Virus record (IMG/VR): IMGVR_UViG_2919361683_000002
Location: 145,711 to 176,963 of that record
Source of the DNA: a virus
Direction: 5' to 3' (one strand)
Length of the DNA stretch: 31,253 nt
Shown here: positions 8,912 through 27,558 of the stretch, in pieces
Numbering within the stretch: position 1 is the stretch's first letter
Layout: every line of letters starts with the position of its first letter
Made by a program: the position numbers and the translations under genes
The notes under the pieces: model-generated
Told to the model about the DNA's origin: nothing
Seen by the model: the letters and a program-made list of their open reading frames with translations, nothing else
The model's database searches: none

Positions 8912-8927
8912 TAAAAGCCGTCTTTTA
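8912..8927. repeat. Palindromic junction site 1 (TAAAA-GCCGTC-TTTTA)
   Basis: Read directly; 7 nt after the stop of 8617-8904. Confidence 0.8.
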
Positions 8928-9013
8928 TCAAAATAGATAGTACAGACAACAATGGATTGAGAACACTAACTAATACATATAGAATAAAATAAATATATCG
9001 GAGGATAAATATT

Positions 9014-9295
9014 ATGAGAAAAGTGATTTTAGGAGCAAATAAAGAAATGATCGGGATGTATGTGGATCAAGTGTTAGAAAAATATGATGACAGTTTAATG
9101 GTCTTGGCTCCACCTTCAGGGACGATTAGCACTTATGCACCATCCAAGAAAGGAAAGAACAAGGGCTATTATCGAATCAAACTTGAAGTTTGGATTCCTG
9201 AAGATGCAATTAAGGGTGAGGACGCACTAAATGATTTTGGTGCATCTATTTTAATGAGACTACCCAAAGATAGAGTTGCTGACCATTTGAAGTAA
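9014..9295 (+). CDS. Hypothetical phage protein
   Basis: RBS GGAGG, 93 aa. Confidence 0.75.
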   Translation: MRKVILGANKEMIGMYVDQVLEKYDDSLMVLAPPSGTISTYAPSKKGKNKGYYRIKLEVWIPEDAIKGEDALNDFGASILMRLPKDRVADHLK

Positions 9296-9324
9296 ACTAT
9301 GCAAACAAATAAGGAGATAATTCA

Positions 9325-9579
9325 ATGAAAAGCAGTGCGGATTGTGAACTGATTAGTGTTTCACTTAGTAGTGAAAATTATTTTGGCAAAGATGATGAAC
9401 TTAATGGAAGTGCAAAAATTAAAGTTGATATCTCGATGGGGAAATTATTTGGAAAAACATTGGAGTGTTCAGAAACAGAATATATCAGTCTGTCAATGTT
9501 CTCTAAAGGAACTCAACAAAAAGCAATAGAATTATTTGAACAAATTAAAATAGAAATTAAGAACGAGATAAAAATCTAA
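9325..9579 (+). CDS. Hypothetical phage protein
   Basis: RBS AAGGAG, 84 aa. Confidence 0.7.
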   Translation: MKSSADCELISVSLSSENYFGKDDELNGSAKIKVDISMGKLFGKTLECSETEYISLSMFSKGTQQKAIELFEQIKIEIKNEIKI

Positions 9580-9584
9580 TTTTA
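9569..9584. repeat. Palindromic junction site 2 (TAAAA-ATCTAA-TTTTA, arms extend to GATAAAA/TTTTATC)
   Basis: Spacer contains the stop of 9325-9579; RBS AGGAGG follows. Confidence 0.8.
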
Positions 9585-9610
9585 TCAAAATATATAGGAG
9601 GATATAATAT

Positions 9611-9997
9611 ATGACACAAATATTGACACGGGAGCAAGTGTTGACGATGGAACCAGCGGAAATCGACCGTCATATTCACACGATATTGTTTAATGGTGAA
9701 GATTTAACAGGATTTAAGTATAAACATGTAACCTATACAATACCCGACAGGCGCGTTTTTGTTAAAGAAATTGATACAGGCGTGATATGGAGAGAATGTC
9801 TAGCTTATTCCCTAGAGATATCATCTGCATGGGAAGCAGAAAAGAAGATCAAGGAACTGAGATTACAGGCTAAATATTGCATAGCATTAAAACAGATTGT
9901 TATTGGTACAGGCGAATATGTAGGAATGTTTGATTATATCCACGCAACACCTGAACAACGTTGCAAAGCCGCGTTATTGGCTGTACTGGACATATAG
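9611..9997 (+). CDS. Phage protein, BC1872/ABA-sandwich-like
   Basis: EID..I, YS..ISSAW and C-terminal ATPEQRCKAALLAV pattern; RBS AGGAGG. Confidence 0.55.
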   Translation: MTQILTREQVLTMEPAEIDRHIHTILFNGEDLTGFKYKHVTYTIPDRRVFVKEIDTGVIWRECLAYSLEISSAWEAEKKIKELRLQAKYCIALKQIVIGTGEYVGMFDYIHATPEQRCKAALLAVLDI

Positions 9998-10010
9998 GAG
10001 GAAGTTGAAA

Positions 10011-10421
10011 ATGAACAATAAACATCGTGGCAAGCACATTGAAACAGATGAGTGGATCTACGGCTACTTAATCGGTGACGATGTAATCGTTGGAGATATT
10101 GTTGTATGGGATGATCAATATTTCTGTACAGAATATTGGTATAAGGTTGATCCAGATACGGTTGGACGGAACATTGGTAAAATTAGCATCGAAAATGACG
10201 AGGAATTATATGAGGGAGATATTCTTGCACCAACTCTGGCTTATAAAGAACATGAAGTAAAAATTATTTGCTACGACAGAAATCAATCAAAATACAAAGC
10301 AGTACCATTGAGTATGTATTTGATTAACGCAGGCAATGGTGGGTGGACAGGTTATGATATAGAATGGCTTCCACATAAGATTGGCAACATTCACGACAAT
10401 CCTGAACTATTGGAGGTATGA
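10011..10421 (+). CDS. YopX-family protein
   Basis: RGK....EWIYG, VDPDTVG, YEGDIL, IGNIHDNPELLE; start moved to ATG 10011 behind AGGAGG. Confidence 0.85.
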   Translation: MNNKHRGKHIETDEWIYGYLIGDDVIVGDIVVWDDQYFCTEYWYKVDPDTVGRNIGKISIENDEELYEGDILAPTLAYKEHEVKIICYDRNQSKYKAVPLSMYLINAGNGGWTGYDIEWLPHKIGNIHDNPELLEV

Positions 10422-10702
10422 AAATGAAATTGTTTAGAGTGGATAATAAATATACTAGTTACGGGTTAAACAGCTACTTAGTAATCGCAAAGACAGAGCA
10501 AGAAGCCATAGAAATGGCAGGGGCTAAACTTAGGAAATATGCTCTTGATACTAACTTTACTATTAATGAATTGGCCTACAGACAAGTTGGAATACAAATA
10601 AATAATATTTTTGAACATATCGGTCAAGCTAGTTATTTGTCATACTTTACAGCTACATGTCTGACTGAAGATGTTGCCCATAAGCAAACAATAAAAATTT
10701 AA
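10418..10702 (+). CDS. Hypothetical phage protein
   Basis: ATGA overlap with the YopX gene; RBS GGAGG. Confidence 0.7.
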   Translation: MKMKLFRVDNKYTSYGLNSYLVIAKTEQEAIEMAGAKLRKYALDTNFTINELAYRQVGIQINNIFEHIGQASYLSYFTATCLTEDVAHKQTIKI

Positions 10703-10712
10703 TGTGGGAGAC

Positions 10713-10976
10713 ATGAAAATGAAAGAGAAATATTCTTTTAAATTTACAGGTTATCCAAGTGGAGATCACGAAGCATATTGTTTTGATGTTTGTAAGTCAG
10801 ATTATAGACATACCACATCGAATGAGCCAGATAAAGTATTTGATAAATCATGTTTTCATAAAGGTTACTATAGATTGTATCCAGACGATTTGTTGTTAGG
10901 AATAGCTGAACAACACAAGAAATATAAATTTGAGATTATCATTAAAGTCAAAGAGGAAAGGGTAGATAATCAATGA
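10713..10976 (+). CDS. Hypothetical phage protein
   Basis: GGGAG then ATG at 10713/10719. Confidence 0.65.
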   Translation: MKMKEKYSFKFTGYPSGDHEAYCFDVCKSDYRHTTSNEPDKVFDKSCFHKGYYRLYPDDLLLGIAEQHKKYKFEIIIKVKEERVDNQ

Positions 10977-11149
10977 ACTACTTAGAAGTTACTATGCGTG
11001 GATTGTCCAATATGCTCTACAATATCTCGCAAAACCCAAGTAAAGAGAACTGCAATGTCATGTTGGACAGCATTAAGAGAACACTTGCCGATTATAATGA
11101 AGCAGGTGGGAATATCAATATTAAAGATTTTAGGGAGAAGGGGCAATGA
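10973..11149 (+). CDS. Small hypothetical protein (58 aa, MNYLEVTMRG...), not in ORF track
   Basis: ATGA overlaps at both ends; fills the gap exactly. Confidence 0.65.
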   Translation: MNYLEVTMRGLSNMLYNISQNPSKENCNVMLDSIKRTLADYNEAGGNINIKDFREKGQ

Positions 11150-11520
11150 ACCAAATGTTTAAAAAAGAAGAAGTGGAATTTTATTTGAATTTACATGATG
11201 GTGTAACAAATAAGATTTATGACATCATTCAATTACATAGTTCAATTGATAATAAATATTATGAAGTCAATGAAATACAATATAAAAATAACGTCATCAT
11301 AGTGGATGTTGAATATTATAAATATGGAGATCTTGAGTACGATAGCATACATATTGATCCGCGAATGCTGTACGACGATGAGTTCTTTAATGAACTCAAG
11401 AATGAGTCTGAGCAAGTTGAGAACGAGCGATCAAATCAAATTAAAACTAAAGAGCAGCACAGAATAAAGGAAGAATTAGAAAAGGCGCGCCAGTTAATTG
11501 CTAAGTATGAACAACAATAA
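11146..11520 (+). CDS. Hypothetical protein with C-terminal coiled coil
   Basis: ATGA-coupled; GGAG upstream. Confidence 0.7.
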   Translation: MNQMFKKEEVEFYLNLHDGVTNKIYDIIQLHSSIDNKYYEVNEIQYKNNVIIVDVEYYKYGDLEYDSIHIDPRMLYDDEFFNELKNESEQVENERSNQIKTKEQHRIKEELEKARQLIAKYEQQ

Positions 11521-11522
11521 GA

Positions 11523-11538
11523 TAAAAGTCTAGTTTGA
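11523..11538. repeat. Palindromic junction site 3 (TAAAA-GTCTAG-TTTGA, one mismatch)
   Basis: Begins 2 nt after the stop of 11146-11520. Confidence 0.7.
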
Positions 11539-11563
11539 TCAGAAACAATGAAAGGGCGAAAGA

Positions 11564-11824
11564 ATGGAAGTATTTATGGGTGGGACTATTATGGTGAATA
11601 CAGAAAAGAGAAGCGTTGTGTCTGGAAGTTATGTAGTATCTTTTCATCCAAAAATGTCGGGTAAAAATATCACTACAATTGATGGTAAATGTTACATAGA
11701 TGGATATGAGTTAGTTGAGGTAAATGGAAAAGAACTTTTTGGTCGCTATGGCACAGAATATTTTAATGAAGATGATCAAATACCTGTTTTATTTAGAGTA
11801 AGAGTTTCTGATTGTGCGAATTAA
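11564..11824 (+). CDS. Hypothetical phage protein
   Basis: 86-aa ORF after AAAGGG. Confidence 0.6.
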   Translation: MEVFMGGTIMVNTEKRSVVSGSYVVSFHPKMSGKNITTIDGKCYIDGYELVEVNGKELFGRYGTEYFNEDDQIPVLFRVRVSDCAN

Positions 11825-11867
11825 GTAGTTATTAAATAAAATGGAATATATTCCATAAGAAGAGGGG

Positions 11868-12470
11868 ATGCAAGTGAATAAAATAGAAAGTCTAATTAAT
11901 GATTTCATGAAGAGTATCTTTCACGATGAGATAGTTATTGCTAATTTTAGTGAAGAGAGCAGAGATATTGAATTCACATTGATTAACAAACTCTTTGAAG
12001 ACGAAACGTATGTGTTGATAGATACTTACTGTCAGGATGAAAACGAGCTTGTCGAATATCTATCTAAATATTTCTTTGATAATTTTAAGGAGTATCTTGA
12101 GGATCTGCGTAAATCAGCGGATTTGGTATTATGCGATGAACCAGACGAAATGGAGTATGAAAATTGTTATCCCTCAATTGATGGTATTGCTTATAGTATG
12201 GGGTTTGACATTGACGATGATGGACATTGGACTGAACGTTCAAATGATGATTTTGAATGGTGGAGCTATGACAATTGTGGCCCACACACTTACTATGAAG
12301 AAATAGATGGTGACAATGTTTATGAATATGAAGATCACATATTTTTCAAAATACGCCGAATAATCAATAGGGCAGATTACGAGAAAAAAATTATGCCATT
12401 TTCAGACCATGAATACAGCGATGATCCGTTTGAAATGAAACCACGACAGAATTTGCAGAACAATTTGTGA
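11868..12470 (+). CDS. Highly acidic hypothetical protein
   Basis: About a quarter of residues are D/E; purine-rich RBS. Confidence 0.7.
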   Translation: MQVNKIESLINDFMKSIFHDEIVIANFSEESRDIEFTLINKLFEDETYVLIDTYCQDENELVEYLSKYFFDNFKEYLEDLRKSADLVLCDEPDEMEYENCYPSIDGIAYSMGFDIDDDGHWTERSNDDFEWWSYDNCGPHTYYEEIDGDNVYEYEDHIFFKIRRIINRADYEKKIMPFSDHEYSDDPFEMKPRQNLQNNL

Positions 12471-12491
12471 AATTCTACTGGAGGAAGATGA

Positions 12492-13610
12492 ATGAGTAAA
12501 TATGAATTAAGTTTATCAAAAGATTATGTTCCTGATTGGACAGTTGTCGATGCTGTACGTGAATTGTTTCAAAATGCACTCGATCAACAAACTACATCAA
12601 ACGATAATAAAATGTTCTTCGAATACGAGAATGAAACTCGAAAGCTGTGCATTGGAAACAAGTCGTCTATCCTTAATGTGAAAACTCTTCTGCTTGGCTC
12701 TTCAACCAAACGTGACGATCCCAATACAATTGGTCAATTTGGAGAAGGATATAAAATTGCCACACTAGTATTGACCCGACTAAATAAACCAGTGACCTTT
12801 TATAACTATGGTGCAAAAGAAGTTTGGAAGCCGAGATTTGTTAATAGTCGTCGTTATGGGGAAGATATCTTAACCTTTTTCGTCGATAAGAAATACCCTT
12901 GGGACAAAGTACCTGATAACAATCTAACTATTGTTATTGAGAATATCACAAATCAAGAATATCAAGATATTGTTGAGTCTAATCTTCATTTGCAAGATGT
13001 TGGGGAAATTATTGAAAGCAGCTTTGGTCGAATACTTGAAGAAGAAAGATATAAAGGTAAAGTGTTTGTTAATGGATTGTTTGTATGTAACTACAGTGAG
13101 TATACGCAAGGATATGATTTTAAGCCTGAGTACATAAAGATTGATAGGGATAGAAAATTGGCTGACTCGTTTGAATTGAAATGGCTATCTTCTAGGATGT
13201 TGAGCGGTGTTAATTCTAATAAGACTGTGGACATGATTAAAAATAGTTCTCCAGATGTTCAATATATTACAAGTGCCTATACAACAAATGCAGACAATAG
13301 GCTAAGAGAGATCGTAGATAATGTATATGATGATTTTAGAAATGAACATGGCGAGAATGCTGTTCCTGTTTCAAATCAAGAAGAATATACAGAAGTATCA
13401 AAATCGGCAAAATATAGACCAGTTTATGTTTCATCGTCACATGCAATTGCAATTAAAACAAGTTACAAATATGTGAAGCCTGTTCTAGAACCAGATAAGA
13501 AAGAGTCGGTAAATAAAAGACTCGTTACATGGTTAGACAGTCACAAACAAAGCTTATCTAAAAAAGCAATTAGACAATTAGAAGAGATTATTGAAGACGT
13601 TGTTGAATAG
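12492..13610 (+). CDS. GHKL (Hsp90/MORC-like HATPase) domain protein
   Basis: N-box AVRELFQNALD; G-box LGSSTK...IGQFGEGYK; RBS GGAGG. Confidence 0.8.
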   Translation: MSKYELSLSKDYVPDWTVVDAVRELFQNALDQQTTSNDNKMFFEYENETRKLCIGNKSSILNVKTLLLGSSTKRDDPNTIGQFGEGYKIATLVLTRLNKPVTFYNYGAKEVWKPRFVNSRRYGEDILTFFVDKKYPWDKVPDNNLTIVIENITNQEYQDIVESNLHLQDVGEIIESSFGRILEEERYKGKVFVNGLFVCNYSEYTQGYDFKPEYIKIDRDRKLADSFELKWLSSRMLSGVNSNKTVDMIKNSSPDVQYITSAYTTNADNRLREIVDNVYDDFRNEHGENAVPVSNQEEYTEVSKSAKYRPVYVSSSHAIAIKTSYKYVKPVLEPDKKESVNKRLVTWLDSHKQSLSKKAIRQLEEIIEDVVE

Positions 13611-13644
13611 TAAAACAAAAAATACTTATAAGGGAGATATTAAA

Positions 13645-14391: not shown

Positions 14392-14403
14392 TACATATTG
14401 CTG

Positions 14404-14419
14404 TAAAACACTTGTTTTA
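14404..14419. repeat. Palindromic junction site 4 (TAAAA-CACTTG-TTTTA)
   Basis: Intergenic; AAAGGAG follows within 4 nt. Confidence 0.8.
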
Positions 14420-14437
14420 TAGAAAGGAGAGTAAATT

Positions 14438-14608
14438 TTGAAGTGGTTGGTTTGGTCAATTAAGTCTTGGTCATGTGAGCACGAATGGAAATATGACGAA
14501 AGCATTTTTAAAACATATCATCCAGATTACAATTTTACAACGTCCAAGACTAGAGTTTCAGCAACATGTACTAAATGTGGATGGCATCGTAAATATGATA
14601 AATTCTAA
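14438..14608 (+). CDS. Small putative zinc-binding protein (56 aa, CEH...CTKCG), not in ORF track
   Basis: TTG start behind AAAGGAG; CxH and CxxC ligand pattern. Confidence 0.7.
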   Translation: MKWLVWSIKSWSCEHEWKYDESIFKTYHPDYNFTTSKTRVSATCTKCGWHRKYDKF

Positions 14609-14634: not shown

Positions 14635-15369
14635 ATCAGAACATTAGCAGTTAGTGATCCGCATGGATGTAATGACGAATTTAATTCATTATTGAAAAAA
14701 GTAAAGTACAATCCTTCTCATGACAAACTCATTCTACTTGGAGATTATGTTGATCGAGGACAAAAGAGTAGACAGATGGTTGAACAAGTAATGCAGCTTC
14801 ATAATGAATGGGGTGTAATTGCTCTTAAGGGAAATCATGACGATATGTTTGTGGCTGCAATAAATAATGATATTGAAGAATTAGATGCCCAATGGCTTAA
14901 TAATGGTGGATTTCAAACTATAGAGAGTTATTGTGGGATTAGTTTTTTTGAAGAAGGATTCGAATGGGAGCAATACATAAAAGCAAAAGAGTTCATTAGG
15001 AAGCACTATCAGAACCACATTGATTTCTTGGGGTCACTGCCTTTGTATTATGAAACAGAAAGTCACATATTTGTTCACGCTGGAGTTAATCCATTTTATG
15101 AAGACTGGCGAAATCAGCCTGAGAGCGACTTCATTTGGATTAGAGATATATTCTTTAACAACAAAACAGGCTTAAATAAAACTGTTGTTTTTGGTCATAC
15201 ACCCTGTATCCATTTGCACGAATCTGAGGACATTTGGTTTGATCCTACGGGTGATAAGATCGCCATTGATGGAGCCTGTGCATATGGATTACAAATGAAC
15301 CTGCTTGAAATTACTGAAGAAGGAACATACATAGAAAATTGTGTGCGTAGAGGCGAAATACATGATTAA
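14635..15369 (+). CDS. Ser/Thr protein phosphatase-like metallophosphoesterase (PphA/lambda-phosphatase type)
   Basis: SDPHG, LGDYVDRG, KGNHD, FVHAG, FGHTP, IDGAC. The first motif lies upstream of the track start and requires an ATC (14635) or ATA (14629) start. Confidence 0.85.
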   Translation: MRTLAVSDPHGCNDEFNSLLKKVKYNPSHDKLILLGDYVDRGQKSRQMVEQVMQLHNEWGVIALKGNHDDMFVAAINNDIEELDAQWLNNGGFQTIESYCGISFFEEGFEWEQYIKAKEFIRKHYQNHIDFLGSLPLYYETESHIFVHAGVNPFYEDWRNQPESDFIWIRDIFFNNKTGLNKTVVFGHTPCIHLHESEDIWFDPTGDKIAIDGACAYGLQMNLLEITEEGTYIENCVRRGEIHD

Positions 15370-16018
15370 CAAGAGTCTAAATTATAAAAGAGATCCTAGC
15401 TTGAACAATGAAGAGACGATTAAAGAGGCAAAGCTAACAAACAATAAAGAACTTAGGGATAAGATTATAAATAATAATATTCCATTTGTTAAAAGCCTAG
15501 CTGACCGTTGGTATAAACGAGGAGTCCCAGAAGAGTTTGATGATCTAGTGGGTATGGGAATGGTAGCACTAATGAAGGCTTACAATACATATGACACGAA
15601 CAAGAATATTAAATTTACTTCATATCTTGGAAAAGTAGTATGGAAAGAATTTATGGCACATTCCAGATATAAAAGCATGAAATGCCGTAGCAAGTACTCC
15701 AGTATTAGCTTCAACGAAACACTTCATAAATCAAAAGGCACAGACGAAGAAAAGCTACTTGCTGAAGTTATTTCAAATGATAGTCACCTAGATTATCTGA
15801 CAGTAGAGGATGAAATGTTCAATACGCATTTAGTTGAACAAATGGATACATTGTTGGCGAAGAAGGAGAGAATCGTTGCTGACAAGTACTTTTTCGAAGG
15901 CAAAAGCATATCGGAAATAGGAGTTGAACTTGGCGTGTCACGTCAGGCAGCGCATCAAGCTTTTCAAAGAACAATAAAACGACTGAAACCAATCTATACT
16001 AATTGGGAAGTGGTTTAA
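15362..16018 (+). CDS. Phage-encoded sigma-70-family alternative sigma factor
   Basis: Region 2 (NNIPFVKSLA...DDLVGMGMVALMKAYNTYD..KNIKFTSY) and region 4 HTH (SISEIGVELGVSRQAAHQ); ATG 15362. Confidence 0.88.
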   Translation: MINKSLNYKRDPSLNNEETIKEAKLTNNKELRDKIINNNIPFVKSLADRWYKRGVPEEFDDLVGMGMVALMKAYNTYDTNKNIKFTSYLGKVVWKEFMAHSRYKSMKCRSKYSSISFNETLHKSKGTDEEKLLAEVISNDSHLDYLTVEDEMFNTHLVEQMDTLLAKKERIVADKYFFEGKSISEIGVELGVSRQAAHQAFQRTIKRLKPIYTNWEVV

Positions 16019-16019
16019 T

Positions 16020-16208
16020 CTGAACAGAAAACAACTTTTAACTTTCACTATTAACTTATTAACTATAATGACTGCTTGCTGTCTAGTAGGTGCAATTTAT
16101 GGTCTGATTTATCCCCAAACTACAACCCCTTGGTTTTGGTTTGGATTCTCTGGAGTTTGTTTATTAGGTGTTGTTTTAGATTATTTAGACTATCGAAAAT
16201 TGAAGTAA
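16020..16208 (+). CDS. Small two-helix membrane protein (62 aa from CTG; 46 aa from ATG 16068), not in ORF track
   Basis: LNRKQLLTFTINLLTIMTACCLVGAIYGLIYPQTTTPWFWFGFSGVCLLGVVLDYLDYRKLK; fills the gap after the sigma gene. Confidence 0.6.
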   Translation: MNRKQLLTFTINLLTIMTACCLVGAIYGLIYPQTTTPWFWFGFSGVCLLGVVLDYLDYRKLK

Positions 16209-16221
16209 AACTCATATTTTA
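16206..16221. repeat. Palindromic junction site 5 (TAAAA-CTCATA-TTTTA)
   Basis: Left arm supplies the TAA stop of 16020-16208; AAAGGAG follows. Confidence 0.8.
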
Positions 16222-16240
16222 TAAAGGAGACAGCTATTTT

Positions 16241-16520: not shown

Positions 16521-17063
16521 ATGAATAAGAAAAAACTCGAAGAACTGTTTTATTCTAAAGAGATGGAACAGATTAGGCTTGATTATTATAATAATGCGTA
16601 TAATCAGGGAAAGTTCGATGAAACATTGAAGAAAATGAATCCTGAAACATTGATCAATATGCACGATGGAGACTTTGAAGTCTGGAAAGGTAAGGTGTGG
16701 TATTCAGATAAAGATCAGTACAACATTTCAGTTGAGGGTTACATGGGGTTTGAAACTATTCAGCAAGGCATTGAGTTATACGAAATGTTTAATGCAGAAC
16801 TATTGAGATACATAGAACAAAACGGTGGTCTGAAAGGTAGGCACGAGTGGAAGAAGGTATATCATACTAGAGCAGTCGAGATATCAAACGAACATGATAG
16901 TTACTGGATTTTTCTTGATGGATACAAATCTGAAGAGATTAGTGACCTTTATTGGTATATGTGTGATGTAATTGAGCAACTGAAACGGCTAAACAAAAAT
17001 TTAAATATAACTAAAATTATGAAAGAGGTAGCATATGAAAATAGTACTCGATTTACTAACTGA
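16521..17063 (+). CDS. Hypothetical phage protein
   Basis: RBS GGAGG, 180 aa. Confidence 0.75.
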   Translation: MNKKKLEELFYSKEMEQIRLDYYNNAYNQGKFDETLKKMNPETLINMHDGDFEVWKGKVWYSDKDQYNISVEGYMGFETIQQGIELYEMFNAELLRYIEQNGGLKGRHEWKKVYHTRAVEISNEHDSYWIFLDGYKSEEISDLYWYMCDVIEQLKRLNKNLNITKIMKEVAYENSTRFTN

Positions 17064-17205
17064 CAACTACAACTCATATTCATCAGAAACAATTGATTTT
17101 GAATCTTACAGTGATTCTTCGGAAGTGGAGATAAGGTTGGGAGACAGAGTGGTTGGTATTGATAAGCAAGAATTAATTAAGTCAATTGAAGCACTATGTA
17201 AGTAA
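17035..17205 (+). CDS. Small hypothetical protein (56 aa, MKIVLDLLTD...), not in ORF track
   Basis: RBS GAGGT; stop coincides with junction site 6. Confidence 0.65.
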   Translation: MKIVLDLLTDNYNSYSSETIDFESYSDSSEVEIRLGDRVVGIDKQELIKSIEALCK

Positions 17206-17218
17206 AAGATGCATTTTA
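17203..17218. repeat. Palindromic junction site 6 (TAAAA-GATGCA-TTTTA)
   Basis: Left arm supplies the TAA stop; GAGGAG follows. Confidence 0.8.
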
Positions 17219-17233
17219 TGAGGAGATGACATA

Positions 17234-18728: not shown

Positions 18729-18744
18729 TAAAATCCTGATTTTA
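18729..18744. repeat. Palindromic junction site 7 (TAAAA-TCCTGA-TTTTA)
   Basis: Intergenic, upstream of the parM promoter. Confidence 0.75.
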
Positions 18745-18814: not shown

Positions 18815-18874
18815 ATGTATTACATTGTATGACACTGATGGTCACTATCATACTTTGATACTCATTGTATTTGG
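18815..18874. repeat. Degenerate 10-bp-period repeats, candidate parC centromere/operator
   Basis: ATGTATTACA TTGTATGACA CTGATGGTCA CTATCATACT TTGATACTCA TTGTATTTGG between the promoter and the parM RBS. Confidence 0.55.
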
Positions 18875-18884
18875 AGGTAATATC

Positions 18885-19850
18885 ATGGCTTTAAATGTAG
18901 TGAAAAATTTAAGCGTGATTGATCTTGGGTTCAGCTATACCAAGGGAAAGACGGGCAATATAATGTACCTTCAGCCCTCAATCTCTGGCGATGTTCAACC
19001 AATGTTCGAAGAAAACATTAAACCAAATGATTTTTTCTATAATGAAGAATTATTCGTGGGGAATCTTGCACTAAGGCACAGTGAGATTAAATATTTCACG
19101 CTAAAAAATAATAAGAGTGAAGCGATGACTTCCGATGTCTTATTGAAAACTGGTTTAGGATATTTAAACAAAAACAATCCATTTAATATGGTAACCGGAT
19201 TGCCTGTTTTATTTTACTTTAATCAAAAAAACGATATGGAAAAGATGTTGGACAGAATTAACACAGAAAATGCTTATAGTCTCAAAAAAGGCAGGGGAAA
19301 TTATTCGGAGGTTAAACTCTCTATAAATAAATATAAACTTGTTCCACAGGGATATGGCATAGCAATGGATTATCTACTAGATAGTAAAGGAAAGATTCAA
19401 AAAGTACATATCGCAAATAAGAAGATATTGGTGGTTGATTTAGGATTCTACACTCTAAATTTTTTGGGACTAGATAGATTAGAAATCATGAAAGAGTCAA
19501 CAAGCTTATTGCTGGGAGTAGAAAAAGCATATCAGTTATTGCGTAAGTACCTAATGAATACTATAGGTAAGGCTCCAGCTATTTATGAACTGGACAAGCA
19601 TGTGATAAGTGGAATATATGAAGGTAGAAATATAAAACCTTTAATAGCAAAAGCGTTTAGGTCATTAGCGATCCAAATTCAAAATGAAGTTGAAGGGTTA
19701 AACATAGATTTTGATCATTATTTAATTGGTGGAGGTGCAGCACATCAGATTTTTAACATGCTTGATTTTCACAATAAGATACTTTTCGATCAGCTTGCAC
19801 AAATAAGAGGGTATGAAAAAATTGGAGTTAGAGCATGGGGAAGAAATTGA
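18885..19850 (+). CDS. ParM/StbA-family actin-like ATPase
   Basis: IDLGFSYTK, VTGLP, PQG, VDLGFYT and IGGGA actin-fold motifs; ATG 18885 behind GGAGG. Confidence 0.9.
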   Translation: MALNVVKNLSVIDLGFSYTKGKTGNIMYLQPSISGDVQPMFEENIKPNDFFYNEELFVGNLALRHSEIKYFTLKNNKSEAMTSDVLLKTGLGYLNKNNPFNMVTGLPVLFYFNQKNDMEKMLDRINTENAYSLKKGRGNYSEVKLSINKYKLVPQGYGIAMDYLLDSKGKIQKVHIANKKILVVDLGFYTLNFLGLDRLEIMKESTSLLLGVEKAYQLLRKYLMNTIGKAPAIYELDKHVISGIYEGRNIKPLIAKAFRSLAIQIQNEVEGLNIDFDHYLIGGGAAHQIFNMLDFHNKILFDQLAQIRGYEKIGVRAWGRN

Positions 19851-20116
19851 TTAGTGCAAGACTCAGAAACGGAAAAGACGATGATCTCAAAAAGGCACTG
19901 AGTAAACTTCCTGTATATTACGATGAGAGCGACATCGTAAGAGAAGCGCTAAGACAGTTTTTATTCGGACACAAGGGAAGAAAACCTAAAATATTGGGGA
20001 GCAAAGTTGCAATTGATGATGAAGATGTCATGGACACTAACATATTATTAGAAGAAGATGATTCTATTTCACAATCAGATCTTGATAAAAGTTTGGATGA
20101 TTTTATCGGGATTTAG
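19835..20116 (+). CDS. Ribbon-helix-helix DNA-binding protein with acidic tail (ParR-like adaptor)
   Basis: N-terminal strand ISARL followed by two helices ending SDIVREALR; overlaps the parM 3' end. Confidence 0.75.
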   Translation: MGKKLISARLRNGKDDDLKKALSKLPVYYDESDIVREALRQFLFGHKGRKPKILGSKVAIDDEDVMDTNILLEEDDSISQSDLDKSLDDFIGI

Positions 20117-20134
20117 TAGACCTTGGTCTACTAA
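20113..20134. repeat. Inverted repeat TTAGTAGACC-TT-GGTCTACTAA
   Basis: Perfect 10-bp arms overlapping the stop of the ParR-like gene. Confidence 0.7.
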
Positions 20135-20166
20135 TACATAAAAAAATATTTAATAAGGAGTATTTA

Positions 20167-20694
20167 ATGAGTACAAATTACAATGTATATATGTTTTTGA
20201 ATTCAAATTCTGAAGTAATCTATATTGGAAAGACAAAGCAAATCATTGAGAGAATGGAAGCTCAACATTTTACTAAGTCGGGTCATTGCCCAACGTCCTG
20301 TTACTTGGAGACATCAGAAATATGGCATGCAAATACAAAAAGTGAATCAGAAATGGCTATTTATGAAATATATTTAATAAACAAATATAAGCCTAAATAT
20401 AATAAATCACTTTTATATAGAGACGAAGATAACTCTGAGAATCACCTTTTGCCAGATTTAAGTTGGAGTAAATACAAGAAAGAAATTTTAATTGAAACTT
20501 CAAAAAAGGAAACAAAAAAATCAAAAGAAGTTGCGGCTAAGGCAAGACTAAGACCGGGAAAAGATGACGATCTAATTGAAGCATGGAACAATATTCCTGC
20601 ACACAATGATAAATCCGATGTAGTTAGAGAGGCGTTACGGTTATTATTCTTCGGCAAAGCAAATCCTTCTGACATTGATCAAAGCATTTCATAG
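20167..20694 (+). CDS. GIY-YIG nuclease domain fused to a C-terminal ParR-like RHH domain
   Basis: VY...IYIGKT...R...H...E...PKYN pattern; C-terminal ARLRPGKDDDL...SDVVREALR is paralogous to 19835-20116. Confidence 0.8.
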   Translation: MSTNYNVYMFLNSNSEVIYIGKTKQIIERMEAQHFTKSGHCPTSCYLETSEIWHANTKSESEMAIYEIYLINKYKPKYNKSLLYRDEDNSENHLLPDLSWSKYKKEILIETSKKETKKSKEVAAKARLRPGKDDDLIEAWNNIPAHNDKSDVVREALRLLFFGKANPSDIDQSIS

Positions 20695-20935: not shown

Positions 20936-20957
20936 GTCACAACGAGAGGTGATTACT

Positions 20958-21932
20958 GTGGATGAAAGCTCTAGAAGGATTACTGTTAATGAATCAAGAA
21001 TTAATGTTGTCTTTAAAAGTCAAGAGGCTTATGAAACAATTTCGGAGCAAAATGAAGAAGTTCCATTAACCAGTAATCATTACGAATCCGCAGCAGACAT
21101 ATTTAAGGATTTAGACGACATGATTGGACTTGAAAAGGTAAAAGAACTTGTGTACGAAATTTATGCATTGATACAGGTACAAAAACTTAGAAGTGAAGAA
21201 GGTCTTAAAAGTAGTAATCAGGTATACCATATGATATTCAAAGGGAATCCCGGTACAGGGAAGACGACAGTGGCAAGAATAGCTTCTAAATTGCTAAACA
21301 GAATGGGTATCCTTAGTAAAGGTCATCTAATTGAAGTAGAGCGAGCAGACTTAGTTGGAGAATACATTGGTCACACCGCACAAAAAACACGAGATCTTGT
21401 TAAGAAGGCTATGGGAGGTATTCTTTTTATTGATGAAGCCTACAGTTTGGCTAGAGGAGGAGATAAAGATTTTGGAAAGGAAGCTATAGACTGTCTTGTA
21501 AAAGTCATGGAGGATAGAAGCGATGATTTAATAATTATCCTTGCTGGATATCCAGATGAGATGGGGATGTTTCTTAGAACAAATACAGGTCTTCCATCCC
21601 GGTTTCCAATACAAATAGATTTTCAGGATTACACAACAGATGAACTAATGTTAATTGCAGTAAAGATGGCATATGAAAAAGACTACAACATTACCTCTGA
21701 TGCACTGATAAAGCTAAGAGAAATAATCCAGATTGAGAAAGACTCAAGAAGTAATTTTAGTAATGCACGTTATGTTCGTAATGTGATTGAAAAAGCGATT
21801 CGACACCAAGCTGTCAGAATAATGAGTAGACGTGTGAAGATTTCTAAGCAAAATTTAATGGATATTTTGCCACGAGATATATCAAATTCAAATGTTGAAA
21901 TGAATAAAAGAGAATCTATCATATTGCCATAA
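20958..21932 (+). CDS. spoVK: Phage-borne full-length SpoVK-like AAA+ ATPase (CbbX/SpoVK family)
   Basis: HMIFKGNPGTGKTT Walker A, ERADLVGEYIGHTA, LFIDEAYSL Walker B, GLPSRF, FSNARYVRN. Clearly homologous to the host remnant at 29447-29854. Start GTG 20958 behind GAGAGG (track 20949). Confidence 0.9.
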   Translation: MDESSRRITVNESRINVVFKSQEAYETISEQNEEVPLTSNHYESAADIFKDLDDMIGLEKVKELVYEIYALIQVQKLRSEEGLKSSNQVYHMIFKGNPGTGKTTVARIASKLLNRMGILSKGHLIEVERADLVGEYIGHTAQKTRDLVKKAMGGILFIDEAYSLARGGDKDFGKEAIDCLVKVMEDRSDDLIIILAGYPDEMGMFLRTNTGLPSRFPIQIDFQDYTTDELMLIAVKMAYEKDYNITSDALIKLREIIQIEKDSRSNFSNARYVRNVIEKAIRHQAVRIMSRRVKISKQNLMDILPRDISNSNVEMNKRESIILP

Positions 21933-21949
21933 ATTAAATTGTATTTGTC

Positions 21950-22007
21950 CATAAAGAACAATCATACTTAATTAACTTAGCTAGAAATCCATCGATTGTT
22001 CTTTATG
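21950..22007. repeat. 14-bp perfect inverted repeat with 30-nt loop downstream of phage spoVK
   Basis: CATAAAGAACAATC ... GATTGTTCTTTATG. Confidence 0.7.
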
Positions 22008-22064
22008 AAGCCTCATAAATATTTAAGGGGGTGAGAGGTGCAAAGTATTCATATTAGATTTTAT

Positions 22065-22080
22065 TAAAATCAATATTTTA
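22065..22080. repeat. Palindromic junction site 8 (TAAAA-TCAATA-TTTTA)
   Basis: Directly upstream of the RBS of 22101-22490. Confidence 0.75.
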
Positions 22081-22100
22081 TAAAGAAGGGCGATGCCAAT

Positions 22101-22490
22101 TTGAAATTTAGTGATATTTCCCCCGATGGAATTCCATTTGAGAAATTAGATGTTGAAATGAAAGAAATCATAAAAATACTTAATTTGGATTATGGAATAA
22201 AAACAAAGTACTGCTGCTTTGGACACGAAGATAGGGCTATCATGTACATTATGTTTCATGAAGAAATGAATGATCTAATAGAAGAACTGGCTTTCAAGAT
22301 ATCGGAGCACACAGAAGGAAAAGATTTTGGATTTCATTGCTGGATAAGAAAAGGTAAAAAGGTAGAAAAAAATTGGATCTGTAAAACTAATGGAGCTAAA
22401 AGCCAGAATGAGCGCTACCGAATTCTTCAAAAATTTATTGAAGTTTTGAAGAATAGTGTCGTGATCGATGTAAAGGAGTGTGTTGATTAA
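22101..22490 (+). CDS. Hypothetical phage protein (LN..GIKT..CCFGH motif)
   Basis: TTG start behind GAAGGG; overlaps the dnaE start. Confidence 0.7.
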   Translation: MKFSDISPDGIPFEKLDVEMKEIIKILNLDYGIKTKYCCFGHEDRAIMYIMFHEEMNDLIEELAFKISEHTEGKDFGFHCWIRKGKKVEKNWICKTNGAKSQNERYRILQKFIEVLKNSVVIDVKECVD

Positions 22491-25400
22491 TTTGTGTGAA
22501 AAGTGTAATTCGATTTTGCTCCATAATCATGTCGATAGGGGTTCAAACTTAAGGCTTAGAGATACAACAAATCGAGTGGAAGAGCTGATACAAACAGCTT
22601 ATGATATGGGACATAAGGGAGTTGCTATAACAGATCATGAATCCATCTCAGCTCATGTTAAAGCAATTCAAGCAACAGAAAAACTAAAGCAAGAAGGCAA
22701 GATACATAAAGAATTTAAGCTAATATTAGGTAATGAAATTTATTTGGTGGAGAGCCTTGCAGAAGTAAGAGATAACTATAAATCTGGAGTTACTAAATTT
22801 CCGCATTTTTTGTTATTAGCTAAAGATGAAATTGGTCATGAACAGCTTCGCTATATGAGCTCAAAGGCTTGGTCTGATTCATTTTTCACAGGCCCAATGT
22901 TAAGAACACCAACAGAACGCAGCTTTTTACGATCAGTTATAAAAGAAAATCCAGGACATTTGATTGCTTCGTCTGCATGTTTAGGTTCACCTCATTGCAT
23001 ATACCTTTTGGAAATGAAATCACATTTAGAAAATAACAATAGAGAAGAAGCAAAAAAAAGCTATAAAAAAGTATGTGATTTTACAAATTGGTGTATCGAA
23101 GTATTCGGAAAAGAAAATTTTTATTTAGAGCTGCAACCTGCCTACAGTGAGGAACAGATTTATTGCAACAAGCAATTGCTTCTATTGGCTGATAAATTTG
23201 ATCTTAAATACATAGTAACAACAGATAGTCATTATCTGCGTCCTGAAGATCGAATTGTACATAAAGCATTTCTGAATGCAAAAGAAGGAGAACGGGAAGT
23301 TGATTCATTTTATGAGGCAACCTTTGTACAAAATCACGAGGAGATAAATGCTCGCTTAAGTTATCTAAGTCACGATGTGATAATGAAAGCATTAAACAAT
23401 ACAATAGAAGTCGGTAACAAGATTAAAGATTATACTATTTTAAACCCAACGATTATCCCTAAAATCGATCTTCCAAACTTCGAAATTAGTGGATTATTTC
23501 GTTCAATTTATTCTCAGTATGAATATATAGATAAAATGGCTCACTCGAATAATAGTCAAGATAGATACATAGTAAAATTAATAGAGGATGGATTTAGAGA
23601 GTATCTTCCATACAACACCTACTCGAAAGAAAAATTGCATGAAGTAGCCGCTAGAATTAACACTGAATTAGGTGAACTATGGAAGATATCTGAGAAAATG
23701 AATCAATCAGTAGCAAGTTACTACATTACAGTTCGAGAAATTGTAAATGTTATTTGGGATGATGAGTGTGGGAATAGTTTGGTTGGCCCATCTCGTGGCT
23801 CTTCTGCTGGGTACTTAATTTGCTTCCTCTTGGGAATTACTCAAGTCAATCCTTTAGAGTATGGCATCGAAATGCCGCATTGGAGACACTTGACAGCAGA
23901 GAGACCCGAATTTCCAGATATTGATATCGATACTGAAGCAGCAAAACGGAATCAGATCTTCAGACAACTAAAGAAGTACTTTGGTGAAAACCAAGTTCTA
24001 CAGGTTTGCACATTTGGTACAGAAGCATCAAAATCTGCTGTACAAACAGCAGCTAGAGGGTTAGGGATTGATAATGATACGGCTATGTATGTATCTGGAC
24101 TAATTCCTTTTGAAAGAGGCAGCAGTTGGACGTTATCAGATTGTGTTACTGGAAATGAAGAAAAAGAACGTAAGCCAGTTAAAGAGTTTGTTACTGAAAT
24201 AAATAAATTTGATAATTGGCTCAATGTGGCAATGAAAATTGAGGGACTAGTAAACAAAAGAAGTATTCATGCTAGTGGTGTAATAGTTTTCAATGAAGAA
24301 TATTATAAAACTAATGCTATGATGACTGCTCCCAATGGTACTCATGTAACGCAACTTAGCCTAGAAGACTGTGAAGCCGTATCAAATATGAAATTTGACT
24401 TGTTGACAATTGAGGGTTTGGATAAGATCCGTGTAGCAATGGATTTTTTAATTAAAGAAAATCTTATGGAATGGCAAGGGTCAATTCGCAAAACTTATAA
24501 CAAGTACCTGCATCCCAATATAATTGACATAAAGAGCCAAGAAATATATGACCTAATTGGTTCGGATAGTATAACTGATCTTTTTCAGTTTTCCACAGAA
24601 ATAGGAATACAAACCGTAAAAAGAACTAAACCATCTAATCTAATCGAACTAGCTGCTGCAAACTCACTTATGCGTCTTATGGGTGACCATAACAGCGAAA
24701 CACCAATTGATAGCTTTATCAGATTTAAAAAGGATATTAATGAATGGTACAAGGAATTGCACGAGAATTTTTTAAACGAAGAAGAAATAGAGACCATGAA
24801 GAATCATTTACTTGCATTGAATGGAGTAGCAGACACACAAGAGTCTATAATGCTTCTTTCAATGGATAAAAAAGTGGCAGGATTTACAATTCAAGAAGCA
24901 AATAAGCTCAGGAAAATTATTGCAAAGAAAAAAGCAAATGAAATCGAAGACATAAAGAATAAATTTTATGAAAAAGGATTGGAGTTGAAAAATAGAAAAG
25001 AGATCCTAGATTACGTCTGGAATAAACAAATAGTTAGACAGTTAGGATATTCTTTCTCTGTATTACATACCTTGGCTTATTCAATTATCGCGTTGCAGGA
25101 AGCTAACTTGAATAATATTTACGATCCTATTTATTGGAGAACAGCTTGTTTAACTGTAAACTCTGCTTCCATTCACGATGAAGATGGAGATGAAGATACT
25201 AAAACACAATCCACAAACTACGGGAAAATTGCTTCTGCAATTGGGAACATGCAGAGCCGTGGCGTAAAAATAGGTCTTCCTGATATAAGCAAAGCCGATT
25301 ATGGATTTATTCCCGATACAGAGTTTAATCAAATTGTTTTTGGACTAAAAGGAATCAATGGCATTGGTGATGATGTTGTTCAGAACATTATTAAACATAG

Positions 25401-26430
25401 ACCATATAAATCTTTTGATGATTTTATCGAGAGGATGTTTAATACCTCAATCATCAAAAAATCCCAAGTAATTCAGTTGATTAAAGCAGGTTGCTTTGAA
25501 TCTTTTGGTAATCGTTTAGAAATTATGAAGCAATTTATACATAAGATTTTTACACCTAAACAAAAAGTTACTATGCAGAACTTTAATGCTCTTATTGAAA
25601 ATAATTTGATTCCAGAAGATATGTCCCAATATAAGAGACTGTTCAACTTTAGAAAGTACGTTATCAAAAATGTCTATGGTAAAGAAGGTAAAGAGAAGCT
25701 TTACTTGCTCGATAAAATTTCCACTCCTTTTTATTATGAGTACTTTTCAGGAGAAGCTATAAAAGATTATCATAATAATTTCCCAATCATAGCAGAACGA
25801 ACATTCAAAAAAGAATACGATAAAAAGATGGAAGGAATAAAGAGTTGGTTAACTGAGGATACTACTCTGTCTCTTTTAAATTCGAAGTTATATAAGAATG
25901 AGTGGAACAGTTTAGCATCTGGAACATTGAGTAAATGGGAGATGGACTCTTTATCATTTTACTATACAGAACATGAACTCCAAAACATTGACACATTCAA
26001 ATACGGAATTGTTAACTTTTTTGAATTACCTGAAGAACCAATAGTTGTTGAAATGATTCAATATAGAAATGGATCAACCAGACCTAAATTCAAATTGGAT
26101 TTTATTGCTGGGACTGTATTAGATAAAGACAAAAATAAAAATACAGTAACGATCCTTACAACAACAGGTGTAGTTACTGCAAAATATTATGATGGTGCTT
26201 TTGCACATTACAATAAACAAATATCAAAACTGAAACCAGATGGGACTAAAGAAATTATTGAAAAATCATGGTTTACGCGTGGCAATAAGTTGATCCTGTT
26301 TGGATATCGTAGAGGTTCACAGTTTAGACCGTACAACTATAAAGACTCAAGAGTTAAACATACCACTATGTTTATTGATGAAATTAGAGAAGATGGTTCG
26401 GTAAAAGTAACTACTGAGCGAAAAAGCTAA
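22480..26430 (+). CDS. dnaE: Phage DNA polymerase III alpha subunit (C-family)
   Basis: PHP domain (HNH, AITDH, TTDSHY), GPSRGSSAG, catalytic PDIDID, SIHASG, KFDLL, GYSFS..H..AY, FGLKGINGIG. Confidence 0.95.
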   Translation: MLINLCEKCNSILLHNHVDRGSNLRLRDTTNRVEELIQTAYDMGHKGVAITDHESISAHVKAIQATEKLKQEGKIHKEFKLILGNEIYLVESLAEVRDNYKSGVTKFPHFLLLAKDEIGHEQLRYMSSKAWSDSFFTGPMLRTPTERSFLRSVIKENPGHLIASSACLGSPHCIYLLEMKSHLENNNREEAKKSYKKVCDFTNWCIEVFGKENFYLELQPAYSEEQIYCNKQLLLLADKFDLKYIVTTDSHYLRPEDRIVHKAFLNAKEGEREVDSFYEATFVQNHEEINARLSYLSHDVIMKALNNTIEVGNKIKDYTILNPTIIPKIDLPNFEISGLFRSIYSQYEYIDKMAHSNNSQDRYIVKLIEDGFREYLPYNTYSKEKLHEVAARINTELGELWKISEKMNQSVASYYITVREIVNVIWDDECGNSLVGPSRGSSAGYLICFLLGITQVNPLEYGIEMPHWRHLTAERPEFPDIDIDTEAAKRNQIFRQLKKYFGENQVLQVCTFGTEASKSAVQTAARGLGIDNDTAMYVSGLIPFERGSSWTLSDCVTGNEEKERKPVKEFVTEINKFDNWLNVAMKIEGLVNKRSIHASGVIVFNEEYYKTNAMMTAPNGTHVTQLSLEDCEAVSNMKFDLLTIEGLDKIRVAMDFLIKENLMEWQGSIRKTYNKYLHPNIIDIKSQEIYDLIGSDSITDLFQFSTEIGIQTVKRTKPSNLIELAAANSLMRLMGDHNSETPIDSFIRFKKDINEWYKELHENFLNEEEIETMKNHLLALNGVADTQESIMLLSMDKKVAGFTIQEANKLRKIIAKKKANEIEDIKNKFYEKGLELKNRKEILDYVWNKQIVRQLGYSFSVLHTLAYSIIALQEANLNNIYDPIYWRTACLTVNSASIHDEDGDEDTKTQSTNYGKIASAIGNMQSRGVKIGLPDISKADYGFIPDTEFNQIVFGLKGINGIGDDVVQNIIKHRPYKSFDDFIERMFNTSIIKKSQVIQLIKAGCFESFGNRLEIMKQFIHKIFTPKQKVTMQNFNALIENNLIPEDMSQYKRLFNFRKYVIKNVYGKEGKEKLYLLDKISTPFYYEYFSGEAIKDYHNNFPIIAERTFKKEYDKKMEGIKSWLTEDTTLSLLNSKLYKNEWNSLASGTLSKWEMDSLSFYYTEHELQNIDTFKYGIVNFFELPEEPIVVEMIQYRNGSTRPKFKLDFIAGTVLDKDKNKNTVTILTTTGVVTAKYYDGAFAHYNKQISKLKPDGTKEIIEKSWFTRGNKLILFGYRRGSQFRPYNYKDSRVKHTTMFIDEIREDGSVKVTTERKS

Positions 26431-26441
26431 AGGAGAATAAC

Positions 26442-26570
26442 ATGATGGACAAGATGAGCAAACATAAGATTGAAAGTATTTTGAATCGAAAGCTTAGCGA
26501 GAAAGAGTATAAAGAGATTGTATCTATCGTACTGAACAAGCTTCTAGAGGAAAGCAATAATGAACAATAA
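26442..26570 (+). CDS. Small hypothetical protein (42 aa), not in ORF track
   Basis: AAGGAG RBS right after the dnaE stop; overlaps the next start. Confidence 0.55.
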   Translation: MMDKMSKHKIESILNRKLSEKEYKEIVSIVLNKLLEESNNEQ

Positions 26571-26787
26571 TCTCGACAGATTTGAAACTCAATATCAGAA
26601 GTATAGATTTCCTGATACACAAGATAAGGAGGTGAATAGGTTTTCAACTTGTGCGGGATGTAATGAAGATATCTTAGTTGGAGATGAAATATTGATCTTG
26701 TTTGATGGTTTGACTGTTCACGATGACTACGGTTGTCTAAAGAAAGCAAATGGAGCAAAAAGAATTATTACTGGAGAGGAATGGTAA
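26560..26787 (+). CDS. Small putative zinc-binding protein
   Basis: CAGC...H...C pattern; RBS GAGG. Confidence 0.6.
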   Translation: MNNNLDRFETQYQKYRFPDTQDKEVNRFSTCAGCNEDILVGDEILILFDGLTVHDDYGCLKKANGAKRIITGEEW

Positions 26788-26788
26788 T

Positions 26789-26965
26789 TTGAATTTAGTT
26801 GGTCATAATATTCAACTTGTTAAAGAATTGAAGATACATACATTAAAAAGACTTGAGATGTACAATAAATATGGATTTATAAAGGAAGAGAAGTATGAGG
26901 AACTAGTAAAGCTAGAAACAGATTATTTGGATGATCGATTGAAGATGATGGAGAGCTTGCTATGA
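26789..26965 (+). CDS. Small hypothetical protein
   Basis: TTG 26789 behind GAGGA; ATGA overlap with recU. Confidence 0.55.
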   Translation: MNLVGHNIQLVKELKIHTLKRLEMYNKYGFIKEEKYEELVKLETDYLDDRLKMMESLL

Positions 26966-27558
26966 GTAAAAATGAAGGGAAGCTCTTTGAGGGAGACTTT
27001 CAAGCGTCTGCTGGATCAACTCAGAAGATATTTTTTACCAGAATTAAAGATACTTTTATTCCAGCGGATTTAAGAAACAGAATTAGAGTTACGAAAAATG
27101 ATTATGACTGCATGATGTTTTCTGAGAAGTATCTTTTTACTTTGGAGCTTAAGTCCACAAAACAAAAATCGGTCAGTTTTGATGAAAGTGTAATTAAAAA
27201 GCATCAGATTGATAAATTAAAAGAGGCCAGTGAGTACGACAATGTTATTAGTGGTTTTATTATAAATTTTAGAGAACCAGACAATAGGGTCTTCTTTGTA
27301 CATATCAAGGATTTTGTTAAGTATCAATTTATTGCTCAAAATCAGCTTAGTCACACATATAAGAACAGAGTGAATAAAAGCAGCATACCTATAGGTATAT
27401 GTGAAGAGATAGGGCTAGAAATCAATGGATTTAAAAAAAGAAGCAAGTGGCATTACCACTTAAACGATTTTGTAAAAAATGCAATAAATACATATGGTTT
27501 TAGCAAACAATTTCATGATAAAAGTAGTATTTTACAGAGAGTAGATAACTATTTATAA
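26962..27558 (+). CDS. recU: RecU-like Holliday junction resolvase
   Basis: N.GK.FE, YD, ELKST, HQI..L PD-(D/E)XK pattern of the RecU family. Confidence 0.8.
   Translation: MSKNEGKLFEGDFQASAGSTQKIFFTRIKDTFIPADLRNRIRVTKNDYDCMMFSEKYLFTLELKSTKQKSVSFDESVIKKHQIDKLKEASEYDNVISGFIINFREPDNRVFFVHIKDFVKYQFIAQNQLSHTYKNRVNKSSIPIGICEEIGLEINGFKKRSKWHYHLNDFVKNAINTYGFSKQFHDKSSILQRVDNYL
27519..27534. repeat. Palindromic junction site 9 (TAAAA-GTAGTA-TTTTA)
   Basis: Within the last 13 codons of the recU-like gene. Confidence 0.65.

Follow-up and report, generated by a model that had tools for sequence, protein, structure and literature searches.

Palindromes with a different six-base spacer in each copy as candidate crossover sites for module exchange in SPbeta-like phages

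The window analysed here is a stretch of 31,253 nucleotides (positions 145,711 to 176,963 of the virus record IMGVR_UViG_2919361683_000002) that lies at the right-hand end of a provirus record of 176,963 bases, an SPbeta-like prophage labelled G000. Its DNA polymerase is 55% identical to YorL of SPbeta and 78% identical to prophage genes of Paenibacillus genomes. Gene junctions in the window repeatedly carry a short interrupted palindrome, TAAAA-N6-TTTTA, which is the subject of this report (Table 1). Judging from the sequence comparisons described below, these palindromes are probably (at roughly 70%) crossover sites of a tyrosine recombinase that needs identical spacers.

The window contains nine exact copies of the palindrome, against a mean of 0.42 in shuffled sequence, and none of 100 shuffles reached nine. 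Across the whole record there are 64 copies with a spacer of 6 bp and 0–6 at every other spacer length from 0 to 12. Arms of the form TTTCA or TTTGA, with C or G at one position, are likewise enriched solely at the 6-bp spacing (for TTTGA, 8 copies vs 0–3 at other spacings), and including such variants brings the totals to 83 sites in the record and 11 in the window. An initial, sequence-only reading of the window had listed nine copies. Eight of these are exact, with the positions and spacers it gave, and the ninth, at 11523, has the single mismatch (TTTGA) that it noted; the list missed an exact copy within a gene at 6026 and the variant copy at 11776. The extended consensus it offered, RTAAAA-N6-TTTTAT, is right at its first base (R in 59/64) and wrong at its last, which is Y (52/64) with C as frequent as T. 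The consensus is therefore symmetric, RTAAAA-N6-TTTTAY, with weaker outer positions and an overall shape of 11+6+11. Inverted arms around a fixed spacer of 6–8 bp are the core-site geometry of tyrosine recombinases, and the palindromes have this geometry. Record-wide, the left arm supplies a stop codon in 18 of the 64 copies, 39 of the 64 lie within 40 nt of a stop, and a Shine-Dalgarno-like word is found within 30 nt of 37 of the 73 early-region sites. Three left arms in the window had been read as the TAA stop of the upstream open reading frame (ORF); we see two, at 16206 and 17203, among ORFs of at least 40 aa. The stop inside the spacer at 9569 and the position of the 27519 copy inside a gene were both read correctly.

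The motif is real and family-wide. SPbeta carries 34 copies, all 20 related records have 5–56 copies as compared with 0–5 for the reversed pattern, and 17–36 copies are found in Staphylococcus, Mammaliicoccus, Tsamsa-like, Geobacillus E3 and Leuconostoc phages. A scan of host DNA, which the sequence-only reading had suggested, shows no excess in two Paenibacillus genomes (18 vs 15 and 14 vs 18). Exact counts are low in the records G005 and G019 because these mostly carry an asymmetric site with one TTTCA arm (23 and 35 copies, respectively); such asymmetric sites suggest either drift of arm preference or a directional form. No published description of the motif was found in a literature search that left figures, supplements, Lazarevic 1999 and Brady 2023 outside its reach.

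Similarity between related phages often breaks off at a site. We compared the record with its three closest relatives (together, four Paenibacillus-type records) and, separately, nine Bacillus records with one another, using stop codons without a site as the control. In pairwise counts, where one flank is shared the other is replaced in 89/176 and 87/172 site comparisons of the Paenibacillus-type records, against 122/513 and 123/477 at site-less stops; the Bacillus values are 257/542 and 196/423 at sites against 394/2183 and 377/2153 at stops. Replacement thus affects about half of the comparisons at sites and 18–26% of those at site-less stop codons. Furthermore, in the Paenibacillus-type records similarity ends at the far arm, at site positions 14–20 in 63 of the 89 cases and at positions −2 to +3 in 63 of the 87, while the spacers of the two records agree, with at most one mismatch, in 71 of 89 and 74 of 87. 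This is the pattern that crossover at the spacer edges between identical spacers would be expected to leave, and it is weaker for the Bacillus class in which the right flank is shared. Contigs of four further runs give a similar picture in the window. Sites coincide with 13 of 29 piece ends and with 4 of 31 piece starts, where about 1% is expected; the counts cover 32 of the 59 pieces.

The arms themselves indicate where the exchange occurs. Mere conservation of the site would predict equal variation in both arms, yet differences in an arm are found mainly where the flank on its own side has been replaced. In the Paenibacillus-type records this is so for 9 of 38 left arms and 20 of 42 right arms beside a replaced flank, as opposed to 0 of 68 and 6 of 64 beside a shared one, and for Bacillus right arms the corresponding values are 33/104 and 5/128. 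Hence, the crossover appears to take place inside the site. In addition, 39 sites keep their spacer at the syntenic place though both flanks have been replaced. In the reading favoured here, each spacer would act as an address. Together, the breakpoints and the linkage of arm to flank agree with the earlier proposals that aligned relatives would break at the sites, that the sites delimit exchangeable modules and that they behave like tyrosine-recombinase core sites.

Within a genome, the addresses are kept distinct. No spacer is duplicated in any of 13 records; six less related records have 0 duplicates where 10.4 are expected (P ~2e-5), and pairs of spacers one mismatch apart are below expectation in 16 of 17 records (12 vs 30 in this record). 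Such avoidance is predicted by selection against self-deletion if spacers must be identical to recombine. The spacers of the window occur in the same order in relatives, and address order is conserved. A displaced flank lies within 15 kb in only 1/145 and 11/314 records, and never behind a duplicated spacer. As read from these alignments, the events are replacements in fixed slots.

Could the palindromes instead serve a phage-wide DNA-binding protein such as YopP/SroD as operators or architectural sites, with modules changing by ordinary recombination and junctions persisting because the site must stay? A symmetric dyad at gene junctions, often with a Shine-Dalgarno-like word nearby, is what an operator might look like; three of the nine MrpR target promoters that we examined also carry a site, one recombinase fold has already been turned into a repressor in SPbeta, and YopP/SroD is reported to be an auxiliary repressor. 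An operator, however, predicts no avoidance of equal or one-mismatch spacers within a genome and leaves unexplained both the arms that change with their own flank and the copies that lie deep in genes or, in some phages, at even intervals (see below). The YopP type is also missing from four site-bearing phages. We consider the operator explanation, which the sequence-only reading had offered as its alternative, improbable given the conservation of spacers and the avoidance of equal or near-equal ones. That reading had also linked the palindromes to the recombinase fold of the SPbeta master repressor, a link that fails since MrpR binds a different element, SPBRE.

SPBRE, the MrpR/SroF operator, resembles the palindromes in being a repeated intergenic element of SPbeta that is tied to a recombinase-fold protein. 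It comprises ten binding peaks at promoters and a non-dyad A-rich word, in contrast to 34 dyad sites, and MrpR is catalytically dead (PMC10516654). We rejected identity of the two elements: eight of the nine target promoters share another word and three hold the dyad, a comparison made from the target promoters and not from the published logo.

Which protein might act on the sites? Within the window, a serine integrase is the sole recombinase, in line with the earlier statement that no cognate enzyme is visible there. Searching the rest of the prophage, as that reading had recommended, finds three tyrosine-recombinase folds, all outside the window. The YopR/MrpR-like protein lacks the catalytic set. 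The other two, a protein in the YomM slot (G000:35862-36908), beside the tape-measure gene and flanked by two sites, and a YopP-like protein (G000:60278-61327), retain the catalytic residues R, K, H-x-x-R/K, H/W and Y; the element thus encodes recombinases with an intact catalytic set. The integrase matches obtained were to Pfam and PHROG. A sequence search for a relative of either protein with a solved structure found none. A YomM-type protein is present in 38 of 38 site-bearing records, including G005, G011 and G012, where it was detected with alignment A1 and missed by the Pfam scan. It is the only tyrosine recombinase in the Leuconostoc phage phiLM33_01 (28 sites) and in the phages PG-2021_4 and 9183, and GR1 lacks the YopP type. 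None of three related records without an excess of sites has a YomM-type protein: two Enterococcus phages lack tyrosine recombinases altogether, and the one in PMBT24 (0 sites) is distant. This distribution slightly favours the YomM-type protein as the enzyme acting on the sites. The assignment is weakened by a negative set of three records only and by the behaviour of the YomM-slot gene, which is subject to swapping in its turn (G000 and SPbeta share 26% identity) while the arms stay unchanged, and whose product is a divergent, long-branch protein in G013, G014 and G016 and is in two pieces in G017.

The YomM-slot gene (G000:35672-37000) is also replaced between G000 and the relatives G001–G003, with about 29% identity and the break at the downstream site. 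The YopP-like gene lies apart from a YopQ/YopR-like pair (95929-98255), whereas the three form a single operon in SPbeta. A whole-word literature search found no relevant paper on yomM. In Tyrovirus the YomM-slot recombinase is gp50, described as having an odd late gene position with a putative 11+6+11 attP behind it; the parts of that account available to us do not mention dispersed sites (PMC9703825). Behind gp50, the phages Tsamsa, PBC2, FADO and 136 carry an inverted repeat that differs from the motif described here, and we rejected the identity of the two.

The same crossover rule might be served by another enzyme: YopP/SroD, a YomM–YopP pair or host Xer. YopP-type proteins keep their catalytic residues and have a far more stable position across large phages, the 11+6+11 shape resembles dif and pdif sites, and YomM-slot proteins that differ greatly are found together with identical arms. 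YopP as sole enzyme was our initial preference; we dropped it on account of its absence from phiLM33_01, PG-2021_4, 9183 and GR1. In the first three of these, moreover, the one tyrosine recombinase belongs to the YomM side of the tree, an assignment taken from a quick tree. Symmetric arms in place of two different half-sites, the lack of excess in the two Paenibacillus hosts, and the occurrence of one motif across Paenibacillus, Bacillus, Staphylococcus and Leuconostoc phages may speak against host Xer. There is, in our view, only a small chance that one of these enzymes is responsible. The serine integrase is also unlikely, as sites are present in the lytic phage 9183; serine integrases differ in chemistry from tyrosine recombinases.

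Two further explanations are very improbable. A nuclease that cut the interrupted palindrome would leave six-base sticky ends that religate to matching ends only, so that the same retention of spacers and avoidance of duplicates would be expected, and the prophage encodes a ligase-like protein with a weak match also in phiLM33_01; but no nuclease shared by G000 and phiLM33_01 turned up in the proteome comparison, a phage would pay dearly for 80 cut sites in its own DNA, and an intact tyrosine recombinase co-occurs with the sites. An integron-like accessory array, as proposed in the sequence-only reading, in which circular cassettes would be excised and could enter any site, could draw on the existence of one-gene modules between two sites, on one 1730-bp insert between similar spacers and on a slight likeness of adjacent spacers in this record (12 vs 5.4, p 0.006; not seen in the Bacillus records), but fails since the events are replacements and not insertions with a duplicated site (0 of 12 traced inserts have a duplicated spacer), module order is fixed, the displaced flank is almost never nearby, and the sites show neither an attC-like hairpin nor an Rfam match.

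We propose the following mechanism for crossover at sites with identical spacers. Tyrosine recombinases as a rule bind the two arms of a site as a dimer and exchange strands at the spacer edges, and a recombinase dimer would do the same here. If identical spacers are needed, a site can recombine only with its match on a sister genome or a related one, and a genome would neither delete nor invert its own genes because all of its spacers differ. Reaction between sister copies would turn a terminally redundant genome into a circle or resolve multimers, and with uniquely addressed sites spaced closely, any redundancy or multimer could be closed. When related phages share a cell, crossing over at one address, combined with a further crossover at another address or in homologous sequence, would replace the intervening module and leave gene order unscrambled. 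Rare crossovers with look-alike sites of foreign DNA might bring in new flanks.

Closing genome copies is the role of Cre/lox in phage P1, and the spacing of the sites suggests that a similar role may have been primary. In GR1, 9183 and PG-2021_4 there are 7–10 sites, some deep in genes, evenly spaced about 10 kb apart, with coefficients of variation of 0.26, 0.27 and 0.41, respectively (p 0.0003–0.002). In the structural half of our record, a boundary that was picked after viewing the data, ten sites leave a largest gap of 10.3 kb (p 0.002); evenness in the structural half is significant also in G001 and G003 and, for the coefficient of variation, in SPbeta. SPbeta-like phages package headfuls from a pac site, and the redundancy of SPbeta is perhaps 2 kb. 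Circularising a terminally redundant genome or resolving multimers would explain the ~10-kb spacing, and we raise it tentatively as the primary role, at clearly less than even odds. Against it, spacing is even in only 3 of 18 whole records, the other 15 not being even overall, and structural-half evenness is non-significant in G002, phi3Ts and G013. Furthermore, Tsamsa has 23 sites yet short, fixed terminal repeats (284 bp), and circularisation therefore cannot be the sole role.

Several observations weigh against spacer-matched crossover at the sites. The Bacillus class with a shared right flank keeps the spacer in only 109 of 196 cases, with many ends beyond the site, and the Bacillus left-arm test is non-significant (5/53 vs 6/179). 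The counts of replaced flanks were taken pairwise, in both directions and among related genomes, and are not independent; hence, their p-values are inflated. In our own reading of the indel list, no more than about 9 of the 29 simple indels reach a site, so genes must also be gained and lost by other routes. Lastly, four laboratory hybrids of phi3T and SPbeta cross over in identical stretches of 1.4–18 kb or in short site-less stretches, none of the four crosses within a site alone, and their authors ascribe the crossovers to homologous recombination. Identical phi3T/SPbeta blocks often start or end at sites, an example being a 1404-bp block that runs from spacer GATCAA to TTTGTC.

What would be the significance of spacer-matched crossover at these sites? 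This lineage of Firmicutes siphophages may possess a natural multiplexed system, made up of one YomM-type recombinase and dozens of orthogonal sites, that began as a means of closing or resolving genomes and grew to about 80 slots for the exchange and capture of genes with exact borders. We think this plausible, though it falls a little short of an even chance. If true, it would be a programmed source of phage mosaicism. The origin of mosaic junctions at gene borders is an old question, usually answered by random joining followed by selection, and a defined site with a candidate enzyme makes it testable in SPbeta (B. subtilis 168, 34 copies). It would also give yomM a function and provide natural orthogonal recombination sites of possible use in genome engineering.

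In its probable workings, the system is most like pdif modules and heterospecific lox exchange; we claim membership of none of pdif, lox, integrons, PeSL or SPBRE. The pdif/dif modules of Acinetobacter plasmids, which depend on XerC/XerD, have many short sites in an accessory region with one or a few genes between them, a 6-bp centre and arms of ~11 bp (PMC6449649). Multiple 28-bp sites flanking accessory genes are found here too. In contrast to pdif, the present sites are phage-borne and symmetric (TAAAA/TTTTA), each copy has a different spacer in a fixed address order, the enzyme is probably phage-encoded, and copies are also spread evenly in core genes. Cre/loxP of P1 and engineered heterospecific lox exchange combine a symmetric site with a requirement for spacer identity. 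The likeness extends to a phage tyrosine recombinase and to pac/headful packaging, whereas P1 has one site and these phages have 30–80 mutually different ones with a 6-bp spacer and short arms, a form of natural multiplexing. The PeSL cassettes of T4-type phages are also repeated intergenic elements that mark modular shuffling in accessory regions; they are promoter and terminator repeats that recombine with one another and give mini-circles (PMC2839356). Unlike PeSLs, the present sites are 16–28 bp long, are neither promoter nor terminator and avoid recombination within a genome. Integrons and attC cassettes in phages share small genes between recombination sites and a tyrosine recombinase (PMC9892861), in contrast to which we see no attC hairpin, no reshuffling of order, and replacement rather than insertion.

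Identities as an RNA hairpin, terminator, promoter or Rfam family were considered and found no support. Folds at the sites have energies of −1 to −8 kcal/mol, with z below −2 in one of eight, so no attC-type hairpins were seen; an Rfam search of the sites gave no match, the terminator scan gave no terminator-like hit at a site, and promoter-like hits numbered 85 where 95.5 are expected by chance.

Within the window, the clearest address is the site at 9569, where the same spacer is retained and either the left or the right flank is replaced. A one-gene module, between two variant sites, is present as a whole piece in run X7 also. The ParM-like cargo module, which begins at the site at 18729, is optional: it is skipped in runs X3 and X11 and in G001. 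The C-terminus of its GIY-YIG protein resembles the ParM partner.

Table 1. Palindromic sites and associated features of the window (window coordinates), with their state in the relatives G001–G003 and the ends and starts of contig pieces from further runs
Feature	Position	Strand	Context and relatives	Contig pieces
Exact site, spacer CAACCA	6026..6041		Inside 5' end of ORF 6001-6783; spacer and both flanks same in G001–G003	
Exact site, spacer GCCGTC	8912..8927		Spacer retained in G002 and G003, GCCATC in G001	End at 8935, start at 8906
Exact site, spacer ATCTAA	9569..9584		Spacer contains stop of ORF 9325-9579; G001 and G003 share left flank only, G002 right flank only	End at 9585, 9585, 9587; start at 9569
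Variant site TAAAA-GTCTAG-TTTGA	11523..11538		Recurrent arm variant	Start at 11522, end at 11541
One-gene module between two sites	11523..11791	+	100% covered in G002, 0% in G001 and G003	Piece 11522-11791
Variant site TCAAA-TACCTG-TTTTA	11776..11791		Last codons of ORF 11564-11824	End at 11791, start at 11772
Exact site, spacer CACTTG	14404..14419		Spacer retained in G001–G003; right flank replaced in G002	
Exact site, spacer CTCATA	16206..16221		Left arm is stop of ORF 16068-16208; right flank replaced in G001	End at 16226
Exact site, spacer GATGCA	17203..17218		Left arm is stop of ORF 17035-17205; right flanks differ in G001 and G002	Two end at 17228
Exact site, spacer TCCTGA	18729..18744		Left end of ParM-like/partner/GIY-YIG module; left flank common to G001–G003, right flank replaced in G001–G003	Joints from 18742 and 18747 skip ~2 kb
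Cargo module: actin-like ParM (PF17989), small partner, GIY-YIG protein	18825..20694	+		
Exact site, spacer TCAATA	22065..22080		Precedes optional ORF 22101-22490 and DNA polymerase gene; ORF missing directly after site in G001 and G002	Three end at 22082
Exact site, spacer GTAGTA	27519..27534		Last codons of Holliday junction resolvase gene 26962-27558; new left flank in G001	Joint to 27519 in run X11
Large serine integrase	27790..29574	+	Runs over attR into host spoVK-like gene; AAG at ~29447-29449	

The serine integrase is a marker of the prophage end and not a likely enzyme for the palindromes. Its frame runs on into the second half of the host spoVK-like gene, which lies before hflX. The same arrangement of integrase and attR is described for phage Goe14; as proposed there, the C-terminus of the integrase differs between prophage and circle because the reading frame crosses attR. 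The prophage also encodes a full-length AAA ATPase (20949-21932) that is 54% identical over 138 aa to the interrupted host spoVK-like gene and may serve as a replacement for it.

Elsewhere in the window, positions 15341-16018 encode a sigma-70 family factor of the phage. Positions 553-5964 hold an anaerobic-type reductase gene followed by nrdI/nrdE/nrdF-like genes; this nucleotide-reductase block is covered to 1% in G001 and G003 and to 91% in G002, and has therefore been exchanged between relatives.

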